NCBI GenBank assembly: GCA_944393465.1
Contig: CALYAG010000008.1
Location: forward strand, 6,990 to 70,989
Origin: an uncultured Clostridia bacterium
GTDB taxonomy: Bacteria > Bacillota > Clostridia > TANB77 > CAG-508
DNA: 64,000 nt
Reading direction: 5' to 3'
Notes under the pieces: generated by a model
Seen by the model: the letters and a program-made list of their open reading frames with translations, nothing else
Databases searched by the model: none
What the model was told of the DNA's origin: nothing
Part shown: positions 59,586-62,646 of the stretch, piece by piece
How the letters are laid out: every line of letters begins with the position of its first letter
How positions within the stretch are numbered: position 1 is the first letter of the stretch
Translations under genes and position numbers: made by a program

Positions 59586-59999
59586 TTAATACAAAATATT
59601 CTCTGCTCTATTTTTATAATTTTCAAGAAGTTCATATGCCTCACTTATTGAACAATTATCAATATCAATATTTGACAAATCTTTAAGTAATTGCATTGCT
59701 TTATCATTTGCCTCATATTGTTTGTAAGTAAATATAATTTGAGAACTTGGATCAATAACTTTTACAGAATAATTGCAGTGAGATAAAATGCGGGAATATT
59801 TTTCAAGAGAAGAAGATGGAAAACCACACTTAACAACATCGTTTGTAAGATTTGTAAGTTTTAAACCTAGAATATCAGAAGCTATAATTGCATCTTTATC
59901 AATAAAAAGTAAAAAAATACCTGACTTAAATAAATACAAAACATTATCTTCTTTTGAAGATTTTTTCAAATAACAATATACATCATATAGTTTACTCAT
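59586..59999 (-). CDS. MutS-domain-I-like small protein (DGR-flanking, copy 1)
   Basis: 137 aa. VLYLFKSGIFLLFIDKDAIIASDILGLKLT....VKCGFPSSSLEKYSRILSHCNYSVKVID aligns by eye with the MutS N-terminal mismatch-binding domain (ILLFYRMGDFYELFYDDA...LT....PMAGIP...YL..L...G.VAI.EQ). AAGAGG RBS. Confidence 0.6.
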   Translation of the reverse strand: MSKLYDVYCYLKKSSKEDNVLYLFKSGIFLLFIDKDAIIASDILGLKLTNLTNDVVKCGFPSSSLEKYSRILSHCNYSVKVIDPSSQIIFTYKQYEANDKAMQLLKDLSNIDIDNCSISEAYELLENYKNRAENILY

Positions 60000-60181
60000 A
60001 ATAACCTCTTTTCTTTAGCAATTAACATAATTTTAATTTGACTATTAAAAATTATACACTATTAAAAAATAAATAACAACAAAGTTGGAAGGAATAGGAA
60101 CAAAATGGATAAAAATAAAAGTAGATAGTTAAAAGTAATGAATTATTAAAAAAACTTAGTAAAGAATTTTGGAAAAAGTTG

Positions 60182-60210
60182 TTGACAAATAATGTAATTA
60201 AATATAGAAT
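60182..60210 (+). promoter_or_regulatory. Sigma-A-type promoter upstream of the leader ORF and the DGR target
   Basis: TTGACA (60182-60187), a 17-nt spacer, then TAGAAT (60205-60210). Confidence 0.5.
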
Positions 60211-60260
60211 AAAAACGAAAGTTAGAATAAACATTCAAAAGAAATGGGAGAAAATAACAT

Positions 60261-60329
60261 ATGAAAATCGCTGAAACCCTTGCGGCTGTACACACACACA
60301 CACACACACACACACACACACACATGTAA
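60261..60329 (+). CDS. Candidate 22-codon leader ORF MKIAETLAAV(HT)5HM containing the (CA)17 tract
   Basis: GGGAG lies 10 nt upstream of the ATG. The ORF reads the CA repeat as alternating His/Thr codons and stops at 60327-60329, about 30 nt before a terminator hairpin. Coding status is unproven. Confidence 0.3.
   Translation: MKIAETLAAVHTHTHTHTHTHM
60291..60324. repeat. (CA)17 dinucleotide microsatellite
   Basis: 34 nt of perfect CA repeats, read directly. Confidence 0.97.
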
Positions 60330-60360
60330 TTTAATAAACGAAAAAACAAACATAGAAATA

Positions 60361-60414
60361 AAAAAGCTATGCTTATTAAACAGTGCAAAAATTGCTTAAT
60401 AGGCATAGCTTTTT
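60361..60414 (+). terminator. Strong hairpin terminator between the leader ORF and the DGR target gene
   Basis: 19-nt arms aaaaagctatgcttattaa / ttaataggcatagcttttt (1 mismatch) with a 16-nt loop. The 3' arm ends in T5. Confidence 0.6.
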
Positions 60415-60588
60415 GTTATGCAAATTAAACATTATGTAAAGCAAACGTAAATAAAAGCAAGCAGATATTGTGTATAAAAACAGCGTATGAAAGTTTAAAA
60501 ATTCTAACAAAGATACAGGTTTTAAATTTATAAAATAAAACCGCAATAATTAAAAATACAAAATTTAAACGAAAGAGAGGAAAAGAAA

Positions 60589-61989
60589 ATGAAAAAACAA
60601 AATGAAATAAACAAACAACAGATGAGTTTAAATACTGCAAAAAATAGCAGTAAAAATCGCAAAAAGCTCACATTACACAAAGTGGCAAAAGGTATGCAAG
60701 GTATAACACTTATAGCATTAGTTGTTACCATAATTGTTTTGCTAATTTTAGCAGGCATAGCGCTTAACCTAACAATAGGGCAAAATGGAATATTTAGTAG
60801 AGCAGAAAAAGCAGCCAACACATGGAGAAATGCAGAAACAAATGAGCAACTAGCTTTAGGAGAACTTGCAGATTGGATGGATAAATATGCTAATGGAAAA
60901 GGTGAAACTGGAGACGCAGAAGAACCAGAAGAAGGAACTTTAGCATGGATGTATGAACAAGCTATTGCAGATGGATGCACAAATGATGATGGTACATGTG
61001 ATAACCCAAATCATTTACACATAGGAGATTATGTAGATTTTGGAAAGAAAGTAAATGAATATTTGCAAACGTTGCCATCACAAGCAATAAATGTAGAAGT
61101 GGAAAAAAAGGACACAGGAATGAGTTATACTCAACACTATACAGTAAGTGCCAGCACTAACCAAGTAAAATGGAGAGTATTAGGATATGATAACCAGAAA
61201 AAGGAAGTAAAATTAAAAGCAGAAACTCCATTACAAACAAGCGATTCAGGTCAAGATGGCATGCTAGGGCTATATGGAGCAGAAGCATATTTATATGCAC
61301 CAGCAAGATTAGACTCAATATGCGATGACATTTATGGGAAAATGGGCATAGTAACAGAAGCAAGAAGTATGAAAATGGAAGATGTAAACAATGTATTTGG
61401 AATAACAGACATAAAATCAAAAGATGTAATGCCAATAATGAATGATTCTTCATATGAATATGGAGATAGCTTAAGTTCAATAACAGGAGTAACACCTGAC
61501 GATTTTATAAATTACTTGAATGATATAAAAGAAACACATCCAGAAGTAACCTGTTCAGAAGAATATAATGACAACTATAATTTACGAAGTGACTTTACAA
61601 GCAAATATGGAAAACCATTAACAAACGAAAAAGTAACAGGATACGCATATATAATAAGTGATGGAAATGATAATGTGAGTGAAATGCCATTACCAGAAGA
61701 GGTAAAAGAAAAAATAATAAATACAAGTTCAACTAAATATGATTTATTATTTAAAAACGCAACATATGAAACAAGCGGAGCATACTGGCTTTCTTCGCCT
61801 GGAGTCCGTGAGGGTGATGGCCGTGCCGACTTCGGACCTGGTGCGGTCGGCGTTTACGACGGTATGAGCTTGGCTGGCAGTGGCGACACGTTCGGCTCGT
61901 ACGGCTACGTGTACGGCAACGGCTTTGGTCTTTGTCCCGTAGTTTCTCTAGAATCTGGAGTCCGTACAGAAGATGTGCCAAAAGTATAA
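60589..61989 (+). CDS. DGR target (variable) protein: prepilin-type N-terminus, C-terminal variable ligand-binding domain
   Basis: KGMQG/ITLIALVVTIIVLLILAGIA resembles a type IV prepilin cleavage/methylation segment. The C-terminal about 55 aa are encoded by the VR. Confidence 0.85.
   Translation: MKKQNEINKQQMSLNTAKNSSKNRKKLTLHKVAKGMQGITLIALVVTIIVLLILAGIALNLTIGQNGIFSRAEKAANTWRNAETNEQLALGELADWMDKYANGKGETGDAEEPEEGTLAWMYEQAIADGCTNDDGTCDNPNHLHIGDYVDFGKKVNEYLQTLPSQAINVEVEKKDTGMSYTQHYTVSASTNQVKWRVLGYDNQKKEVKLKAETPLQTSDSGQDGMLGLYGAEAYLYAPARLDSICDDIYGKMGIVTEARSMKMEDVNNVFGITDIKSKDVMPIMNDSSYEYGDSLSSITGVTPDDFINYLNDIKETHPEVTCSEEYNDNYNLRSDFTSKYGKPLTNEKVTGYAYIISDGNDNVSEMPLPEEVKEKIINTSSTKYDLLFKNATYETSGAYWLSSPGVREGDGRADFGPGAVGVYDGMSLAGSGDTFGSYGYVYGNGFGLCPVVSLESGVRTEDVPKV
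61786..61942 (+). repeat. DGR variable repeat (VR)
   Basis: 157 nt matching the TR, apart from 23 substitutions (all at TR adenines) and one missing AAC codon. Confidence 0.9.
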
Positions 61990-62193
61990 TAAGAGCTAGT
62001 ATAAAATACCTGAAGAGCATAAAATAAAGGGAAGAAAAGCTAGACACCATAAATCCAAGAAGGCCTTAGGTCTTCTTGGGTAAAACCGCAAAATGTGGAA
62101 AGAAATTATAAATTTGAAATAAGTTCTTGATAAAATTACATCATGAATGATAATAAATAAAATAACTAAAGAAATAATAAAGAGGATAATTAT

Positions 62194-62646
62194 ATGGGAA
62201 TAGTTGGTGTAGTAACTGAAGTAAAAAAGGTTCATCCAAAAGATTTAACAATAATAGATATAGGTAAATTCTTTTATGCATATGGTAAAGATGCTTATGT
62301 GTTATCGTATTTATTTGGATATAAATTAACAAAAATTGAAGCTGAAAATGTATATTCATGTGCTTTTCCAAAACAATCATATTCAAAAGTTATTTCAAAA
62401 TTAGAAAATGATAAAATTAATTATTTAATACTAGACAGACACAATAACTATAATGTAGACGAGAAAAGTGATAATCGCAATTTGAATAATTATGACAAAT
62501 ATTTTGAAAAAGCCAAAGTCTTTGTTAATATAAGAATAAGAATTGAAAACATATATAATTATTTAATGAAGAATATTGAAACAGAAAATATAAATAATTT
62601 GTTAAAGAATATGGAAGAAATTTTGAATGGAAAAAGAAAAGTTTAA
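62194..62646 (+). CDS. MutS-domain-I-like small protein (DGR accessory, copy 2)
   Basis: 150 aa. DLTIIDIGKFFYAYGKDAYVLSYLFGYKLT......YSCAFPKQSYSKVISKLENDKINYLILD follows the same MutS N-terminal pattern. AGAGGA RBS. Overlaps avd by 20 nt. Confidence 0.6.
   Translation: MGIVGVVTEVKKVHPKDLTIIDIGKFFYAYGKDAYVLSYLFGYKLTKIEAENVYSCAFPKQSYSKVISKLENDKINYLILDRHNNYNVDEKSDNRNLNNYDKYFEKAKVFVNIRIRIENIYNYLMKNIETENINNLLKNMEEILNGKRKV

Follow-up and report, generated by a model that had tools for sequence, protein, structure and literature searches.

What do two small MutS-like proteins do in a retroelement that rewrites part of its own target gene? The question is raised by a 64,000-nt stretch of an uncultured Clostridia genome (GenBank assembly GCA_944393465.1, contig CALYAG010000008.1, positions 6,990 to 70,989; hereafter the window), in which a diversity-generating retroelement (DGR) carries two short open reading frames (ORFs), here called MSL-A and MSL-B. 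The cassette reads MSL-A on the minus strand and then, divergently on the plus strand, a leader, the target gene with its variable region (VR), MSL-B, avd, the template repeat (TR) and the reverse transcriptase (RT) gene (Table 1). The replacement of the VR by adenine-mutagenized complementary DNA (cDNA) is the main open step of DGR biology, and the rejection of most homing events by host MutS has been shown only recently. MSL proteins are the one DGR accessory family whose fold points straight at this replacement step. Both ORFs are almost certainly functional members of that accessory class; each consists of a lone MutS domain I extended by helices at its C-terminus, and they represent two anciently diverged sister paralog families.

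Two stand-alone copies of MutS domain I

The first-pass annotation of the window had likened both ORFs, by eye, to the N-terminal mismatch-binding domain of MutS and had remarked that the Glu of the Phe-x-Glu motif is missing from each. Profile and structure comparisons, significant for both ORFs, bear this out. The two reading frames were confirmed (137 and 150 aa), and both proteins exceed the gathering score of the Pfam MutS_I model (PF01624; 20.6 bits), MSL-A with 37.6 bits (E 2.8e-9, residues 10-86) and MSL-B with 34.6 bits (E 2.4e-8, residues 7-72). MutS_I is the sole Pfam MutS domain in either protein, the connector, core/lever, clamp and ABC ATPase domains (~800 aa) being absent, and the NCBIfam MutS equivalog models align only over model positions 1 to ~85, with 14-25 bits against cut-offs of 480-642. 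Monomer models generated with AlphaFold2 from family alignments are confident (predicted local distance difference test scores of 90.2 for MSL-A and 92.5 for MSL-B) and adopt a beta-beta-alpha-beta-alpha-beta-beta topology followed by two C-terminal helices. When these models were compared with the PDB using Foldseek, the top matches were, without exception, domain I of MutS, MSH3 or MSH6 (best E 6.6e-6 for MSL-A and 2.2e-5 for MSL-B), with a typical root-mean-square deviation (rmsd) of 1.2-2.4 Å over ~75-90 aligned columns. Neither protein has a family in PHROGs or PADLOC, and no phage-protein or defence-system label resulted.

Single-sequence phmmer searches against PDB chains returned no MutS match for MSL-A or MSL-B, so the relationship to MutS is visible only through family profiles and structure comparison. 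A profile of MSL-A built from 34 relatives matches the E. coli and Thermus MutS chains with E values of 5e-4 to 2e-3. Between themselves, the two window proteins share 38% identity over 48 residues spanning the motif on which the by-eye alignment had been based, and hhalign joins the MSL-A and MSL-B family profiles with a probability of 97.5% (E 9e-12, 25% identity, 84 columns).

The Glu of the MutS Phe-x-Glu motif is the residue that authorises repair. In alignments of the family profiles to E. coli MutS, F29 of MSL-A and F26 of MSL-B fall on F36, while L31 of MSL-A and Y28 of MSL-B fall on E38. The mismatch-stacking Phe is invariant across both families, and the position equivalent to E38 is taken among dereplicated relatives by Ile (61) or Leu (8) in family A and by Tyr (13), His (7), Gln (5), Asn (4) or Arg (2) in family B. 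Replacement of the Glu throughout both families indicates that its loss is a fixed family trait rather than decay. Ratios of nonsynonymous to synonymous substitution (dN/dS) relative to relatives, 0.15-0.20 for MSL-A and 0.18-0.24 for MSL-B, indicate that both genes are under purifying selection.

The MSL proteins thus share with bacterial MutS domain I the same fold (rmsd ~2 Å over ~85 residues), the stacking Phe and the conserved flanking motifs G-x-F...DA and G-(F/I)-P. They differ from bacterial MutS in lacking its connector, core, clamp and ATPase domains, in the natural replacement of the Glu and in their family-specific C-terminal helices, and we infer that they cannot signal repair. 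Of the E. coli MutS mutants E38T, E38A and E38Q (PDB 1wb9, 1wbb, 1wbd), two head the list of MSL-A profile matches and the third heads the MSL-B list.

Linkage to DGRs and pairing of the two families

The first-pass annotation had placed MutS-like ORFs among the DGR accessory genes listed in large surveys, and this is correct. Wu et al. (2018; PMC5758913) defined MSL ('MutS-like') as one of four DGR accessory classes, present in 16 of 372 DGRs, 112-283 aa long, of neutral isoelectric point (pI 7.2 ± 1.7), and found always alongside avd and never with HRDC; the same survey reports single cases with two avd or two HRDC genes. Macadangdang et al. (2024; bioRxiv 10.1101/2024.11.15.621889) describe Msl as part of three Bacteroides DGRs whose diversified products are pilus proteins. 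Like these, the window cassette encodes small MutS-domain-I homologs alongside avd, no HRDC domain occurs in the gene tables of contigs L001-L006, and its target resembles a pilus/pilin-like surface protein, as in the Msl-bearing Bacteroides DGRs. Unlike the MSL of published texts, it holds two diverged paralogs (25% identity). Compared by description only, the MSL-A family (pI 7.1 ± 1.3, neutral) fits the published MSL values and the MSL-B family (pI 9.2 ± 0.5, basic) is more basic. In the article texts searched, a DGR with two MSL genes is nowhere described. MSL as a type of DGR accessory gene is already known; the A and B paralog families, their DGR linkage counts and the dual-MSL cassette as a recurrent variant are new.

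A word-indexed search gave at least 601 homolog clusters for MSL-A and 86 for MSL-B. The MSL-B profile matched 1,452 proteins at E ≤ 1e-3 among 1.84 billion representatives, and the best 150 of these 1,452 are 62-187 aa long and include no fusions. The sample comprised 80 genome loci chosen solely for the presence of MSL-A and 80 metagenome loci chosen solely for that of MSL-B. In these loci, hidden Markov models (HMMs) located the genes for MSL-A, MSL-B, Avd and RT, and self-BLAST with an adenine-mismatch filter located the TR/VR pairs; lineages were counted after dereplication at 90% identity. The position beside a DGR first noticed in the window recurs for both families: MSL-A is directly adjacent to DGR Avd/RT genes in 57 of 61 lineages, and nearly all MSL-B lineages lie beside Avd/RT. 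Three of the four MSL-A exceptions stand at contig edges and one is a true orphan (L038). A pattern search of 2.9 million viral contigs in IMG/VR found neither family, so that, within the reach of such a search, the cassettes look cellular rather than phage-borne. One MSL-A locus (L080) lies within a 2013 GenBank record of Clostridium sp. CAG:389.

The gene order within these cassettes is tight. In almost every lineage avd comes next after MSL-B; the two genes overlap at the avd start in 24 of 26 lineages (median -20 nt), and MSL-B is nearly always translationally coupled to avd. MSL-A usually stands directly upstream of avd-RT or of RT, with median gaps of 1.5 nt to avd and 2 nt to RT. Three layouts account for the 57 linked MSL-A lineages: MSL-A, avd and RT in series, convergent with the target and TR (40 lineages); MSL-A convergent with a series of target, avd, RT and TR (11); and MSL-A followed by RT, convergent with target, MSL-B, avd and TR (6).

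The presence of two copies in opposite orientation around the target had been singled out by the first-pass annotation as notable, and this claim holds in part. The pair is recurrent: 45 loci of uncultured gut Clostridia hold MSL-A and MSL-B no more than 6 kb apart, and these loci form 14 lineages even at 70% MSL-B identity. The bracketing of the target is specific to the window lineage and to L168. Thirteen of the 14 dual lineages are convergent with MSL-A beside RT, and only that of the window has MSL-A upstream of the target; L168, a 395-kb contig of another species, repeats the whole cassette, MSL-A included, in the window layout and in another chromosomal neighbourhood. Bracketing is thereby ruled out as a general design, and an obligatory A/B heterodimer is ruled out by intact B-only cassettes (L112, L099, L169) together with many A-only cassettes. 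Two MSL genes per cassette are recurrent and not obligatory, and bracketing of the target is a local arrangement.

The divergent position of MSL-A in the window bears on a further explanation, that only MSL-B serves this DGR and that MSL-A is, in the window layout, a dispensable or decaying remnant. The target gene and leader separate MSL-A from the core, and it has a candidate promoter of its own; in L168 it is only 96 aa long, in L169, the nearest MSL-B lineage, it is absent, and it is unchanged in L002, in which avd is lost, RT is a fragment and MSL-B is truncated. Set against this are an intact ORF with 98-100% identical proteins in other metagenome assemblies (and an identical sequence in 16 contigs), the low dN/dS noted above, a family that is almost never found away from a DGR, and the 13 other lineages that keep both paralogs. 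We regard a remnant as decidedly improbable.

In the common dual layout (L121 9620-12489 and 12 other lineages, e.g. L089, L097, L100 and L118), the TR lies on the strand of target, MSL-B and avd. With RT and MSL-A on the opposite, convergent strand, TR RNA and RT must come from different transcripts, and each transcription unit has its own MSL gene. A third, A-like subtype, MSL-C (164 aa; 35.8 bits against Pfam MutS_I in L110), carries Asn at the Glu38 position (L110 102-596, L105 1433-1885); its gene stands upstream of a helix-turn-helix regulator gene and a target-MSL-B-avd-TR-RT cassette. Cassettes with MSL-B have a median of 40-45 TR adenines, against 36 in A-only cassettes, and a median of 22-23 TR/VR mismatches, against 14 (Mann-Whitney p = 7e-6). 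These values are suggestive of a link between MSL-B and a higher adenine and mismatch load, in lineages that are not independent and are confounded by phylogeny.

A putative role at the cDNA:VR heteroduplex

We place at roughly 40% the probability that MSL proteins bind heteroduplex or mismatched DNA without catalysis and thereby shield the cDNA:VR duplex from host MutS/MutL. The proteins would be made with, and travel with, the Avd/RT/cDNA complex. Pairing of adenine-mutagenized cDNA with the VR would give a duplex with ~20-30 mismatches in ~170 bp, and the retained Phe wedge would let the MSL domain occupy such mismatched or kinked DNA; with the Glu and all downstream MutS domains lost, no repair signal would be sent. 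Occupancy by MSL would then shield the intermediate from MutS/MutL rejection, and a larger fraction of homing events would survive. Two paralogs may add capacity or divide labour, for instance if one is loaded together with Avd and the TR transcript while its partner joins RT. Each could also serve alone in related elements.

The shield is supported by the domain I fold, the retention of Phe with loss of Glu, the stand-alone nature of the proteins, the linkage to Avd/RT, the recurrence of the whole cassette in the second chromosomal context of L168, the purifying selection and the activity of the element (see below). The higher TR-adenine and mismatch load of MSL-B cassettes, confounded by phylogeny, also counts for a link to mismatch repair. 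Three DGR RTs bear a C-terminal MutS_I-like extension (Wu et al. 2018), fusions in which the domain is physically tied to RT and which we count in its favour. Protection or resolution of the cDNA-target heteroduplex, the role suggested by the first-pass annotation, gains indirect support from two sources. Deletion of host mutS in Bacteroides ovatus raised retrohoming 5-10 fold and left the mutation pattern unchanged, which the authors read as all-or-nothing heteroduplex rejection; the DGR used there was without Msl (bioRxiv 10.1101/2024.11.15.621889). A synthetic DGR circuit in E. coli includes a dominant-negative MutL that suppresses mismatch repair, a design whose rationale was MutS-like homologs (2026 preprint); the same preprint cites a separate report that dominant-negative MutL raises recombineering efficiency.

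The main rival, which is not mutually exclusive with the shield, makes MSL proteins structural or nucleic-acid-handling subunits of a particle of RT, Avd and TR RNA during cDNA synthesis, unrelated to mismatch repair, with tasks such as holding the RNA:cDNA hybrid, the primer or the TR RNA. The tight translational and operon coupling to avd and RT fits such a particle, as do the RT-MutS_I fusions, the usual position of the MSL gene directly before avd in single-MSL cassettes, and the basicity of MSL-B (pI 9.2), which is as high as that of Avd (pI 9.5 as reported by Wu et al. 2018). It has to account for the ~96% of surveyed DGRs that work without MSL (16 of 372 have it) and for a domain that is a reader of distorted duplex DNA and whose stacking Phe is invariant. 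The Bordetella RT-Avd pair, moreover, makes adenine-mutagenized cDNA without any MSL. On this balance we consider a particle subunit possible but somewhat unlikely.

Instead, MSL proteins could read some DNA structure at the target (a hairpin or cruciform, say, or else a loop or D-loop close to the VR 3′ end) and help to steer or prime the integration of cDNA, much as MSH3-type domains recognise loops. The best structural matches of MSL-A do include many MSH3 domain I structures with an insertion loop bound (rmsd 1.7 Å), and replacement of the Glu is also seen in MutS family members that read loops, not mismatches. Across the analysed loci, however, no conserved DNA structure is tied to the presence of MSL, and the MSL genes occupy several different positions relative to VR and TR, which leaves this explanation very doubtful.

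A more specific form of protection would have MSL-A and MSL-B form an asymmetric domain I pair that mimics, in reduced form, the two mismatch-binding domains of a MutS dimer, is delivered by the Avd/RT particle to the heavily mismatched cDNA:VR heteroduplex and blocks host MutS/MutL there. Like eukaryotic MSH2-MSH6 and MSH2-MSH3, the window cassette makes two diverged domain I copies available to one process, and domain I of MSH3, MSH6 and MSH2 all occur among the structural matches of the two proteins, which makes such a pair conceivable. Unlike those dimers, it cannot be an obligatory heterodimer, given that A-only and B-only DGRs occur, and we rate it as unlikely. If true, it would be the first anti-mismatch-repair factor encoded by a retroelement, and it would account for the escape of DGR homing from heteroduplex rejection.

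Several observations weigh against the shield. The MSL-B profile (35 relatives) matches E. coli and Thermus MutS only weakly (E 0.16), though its fold match is clear. MutS owes its DNA affinity largely to clamp domains that MSL lacks, so that domain I on its own may need oligomerisation or tethering to bind DNA more than weakly. The pair is not obligatory, as A-only cassettes with intact RT and intact B-only cassettes exist, and one copy may be dispensable; the truncated MSL-A of L168 and its absence from L169 point the same way. A MutS ATPase motif was found nowhere in ~1.9 Mb of mostly short loci, a result uninformative on host MutS/MutL. Homing of the Bordetella phage DGR has no MutS requirement (Wu et al. 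2018), and in Bacteroides the Msl-bearing DGRs are the low-activity ones, in a comparison confounded by transcription (bioRxiv 10.1101/2024.11.15.621889). The searched literature contains no functional test of any MSL, in line with the earlier remark that MSL function is not established.

If they do act as an anti-repair shield, MSL proteins could improve engineered DGR mutagenesis systems, which now rely on dominant-negative MutL. The gut Clostridia clade, with its natural A-only, B-only and A+B cassettes, an active element and residue-level predictions, makes the question of MSL function testable.

The window cassette and a predicted leader switch

The DGR of the window is complete and active in natural populations. 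Its RT, cut by the end of the window, is complete in a contig of the same species (L001 5381-6325, 314 aa; RVT_1 E 2.7e-14, PHROG reverse transcriptase E 1.6e-80). Among five contigs of this species from different metagenomes, 30 of the 34 variable columns of the target gene fall within the VR, 28 of 31 variable VR columns stand at TR adenines and three VR haplotypes occur; the ~1.2 kb of the target gene outside the VR contain 4 variable columns only. The Avd protein also matches the NCBIfam model DivGenRetAVD (E 2.6e-11) with 43.8 bits, under that model's curated cut-off of 80 bits.

Table 1. Features of the DGR cassette in window coordinates (position 1 is the first letter of the 64,000-nt window)
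Feature	Position	Strand	Description and evidence
MSL-A	59586..59999	-	MutS domain I + C-terminal helix pair, 137 aa
Candidate sigma-70-type MSL-A promoter, TTGTTA-17-TATAAT	60051..60079	-	consensus scan, 10/12
Promoter-like site, TTGACA-17-TAGAAT	60182..60210	+	best match of the region, 11/12
Leader ORF, MKIAETLAAV(HT)n	60261..60329	+	(CA)17 tract at 60290-60323, encodes (His-Thr)n
Intrinsic-terminator-like hairpin + TTTTT	60365..60415	+	RNA fold, predicted folding energy -22.5 kcal/mol; between leader ORF and target
DGR target gene	60589..61989	+	466 aa; pilin-like N-terminal hydrophobic segment, C-terminal variable region
VR	61786..61958	+	28 mismatches to TR, 25 at TR adenines
MSL-B	62194..62646	+	MutS domain I + long C-terminal helices, 150 aa; 20-nt overlap with avd start
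avd	62627..62989	+	Pfam bAvd E 6e-10; PHROG 'Avd protein of DGR' E 7e-20
TR	63074..63249	+	paired with VR by adenine-mismatch pattern
DGR reverse transcriptase, 5′ part	63667..64000	+	HMM match; runs off the window

MSL-A and the target are separated by a divergent region of 590 nt that contains, in order, a strong promoter-like site, a ribosome-binding site, a leader ORF with a (CA)17 tract and a hairpin followed by TTTTT. The position of the promoter-like site is conserved in the related loci L168, L169 and L140, and the leader ORF, its ribosome-binding site and the repeat are conserved in at least 10 loci. Samples of the same species differ in their number of (CA) units, with 13, 15, 17 and 21 found. 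The leader ORF runs on and stops inside the hairpin only if 2n is divisible by 3, the other frames stopping 6 or 11 nt past the repeat. Six loci besides the window show this design (L168, L169, L140, L162, L113 and L076), with hairpin sequences and ON frames that differ; of the three frames that the repeat number can set, exactly one ends inside the hairpin in each of these 7 distinct loci.

From its sequence and by analogy, the length-polymorphic (CA)n leader looks like a phase-variable attenuator of the DGR target, and the window copy (n = 17) would be in the predicted OFF state. The analogy is to the phase-variable leader-peptide/terminator attenuation shown for Streptococcus gallolyticus pil1 (Danne et al. 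2014, PMC3894217). In both, a simple repeat in a short leader ORF upstream of a pilus-type gene alters the length of the leader, and the long leader form enters a premature terminator hairpin, a predicted one in the window. The window repeat differs in being a (CA)n dinucleotide, where pil1 has a GCAGA pentanucleotide, and in standing upstream of a DGR-diversified gene. We also considered the (CA)n tract as a promoter-spacer switch and rejected this, as the flanking hexamer-like sequences stand much too far apart and the leader-ORF/terminator arrangement fits much better. MSL-A, on the opposite strand and with its own candidate promoter, would lie outside the leader switch; promoter-like sites are no more frequent in the region than in shuffled sequence, which makes that candidate promoter a weak one. 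A repeat-driven ON/OFF leader and DGR hypervariation acting on one pilin-like surface protein would amount to two layers of programmed variation.

The N-terminus of the target (60589-60740; also L094 8633-9931 and L112 8677-9924) resembles a type IV pilin-like class III signal/anchor with Ala, not Glu, at +5, and is matched weakly by Pfam N_methyl. A motif of the form (K/R)GITLIALVxTIIVLLILAG is common to 22 of 27 complete targets, in all arrangements. In the window and in L001 the VR lacks one codon (3 nt) that is present in the TR and in the VR haplotypes of L004, L005 and L006. The gap, in the region of 61889-61891 of the VR and 63180-63185 of the TR, falls in a CAACAAC stretch and suggests that a round of homing involved slippage, not just base substitution. 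An AT-rich hairpin with a perfect 14-bp stem and an A/T-rich tail (63582-63613) separates the TR from the start codon of RT; it may terminate the TR transcript or belong to a TR-adjacent RNA element.

The element is chromosomal, with an Rpn-type PD-(D/E)XK gene, a ZIP transporter and an ABC transporter as neighbours, and uvrB in L001. The Rpn-family gene (58568-59362), resembling a PD-(D/E)XK recombination-promoting nuclease/transposase, lies directly beyond MSL-A, and a homolog adjoins MSL-A in L167. A 357-aa acidic ORF 3′ of RT in L001 was rejected as part of the element, having no family match and no conservation beside related cassettes. L002, a contig of the window species, holds a decayed DGR core (7400-9400), in which MSL-B is cut to 68 aa, RT is a fragment and avd is gone. 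Its target is divergent beyond ~nt 461, with genes for a sortase and for large adhesin-like proteins after it, and MSL-A and a (CA)21 leader are intact.

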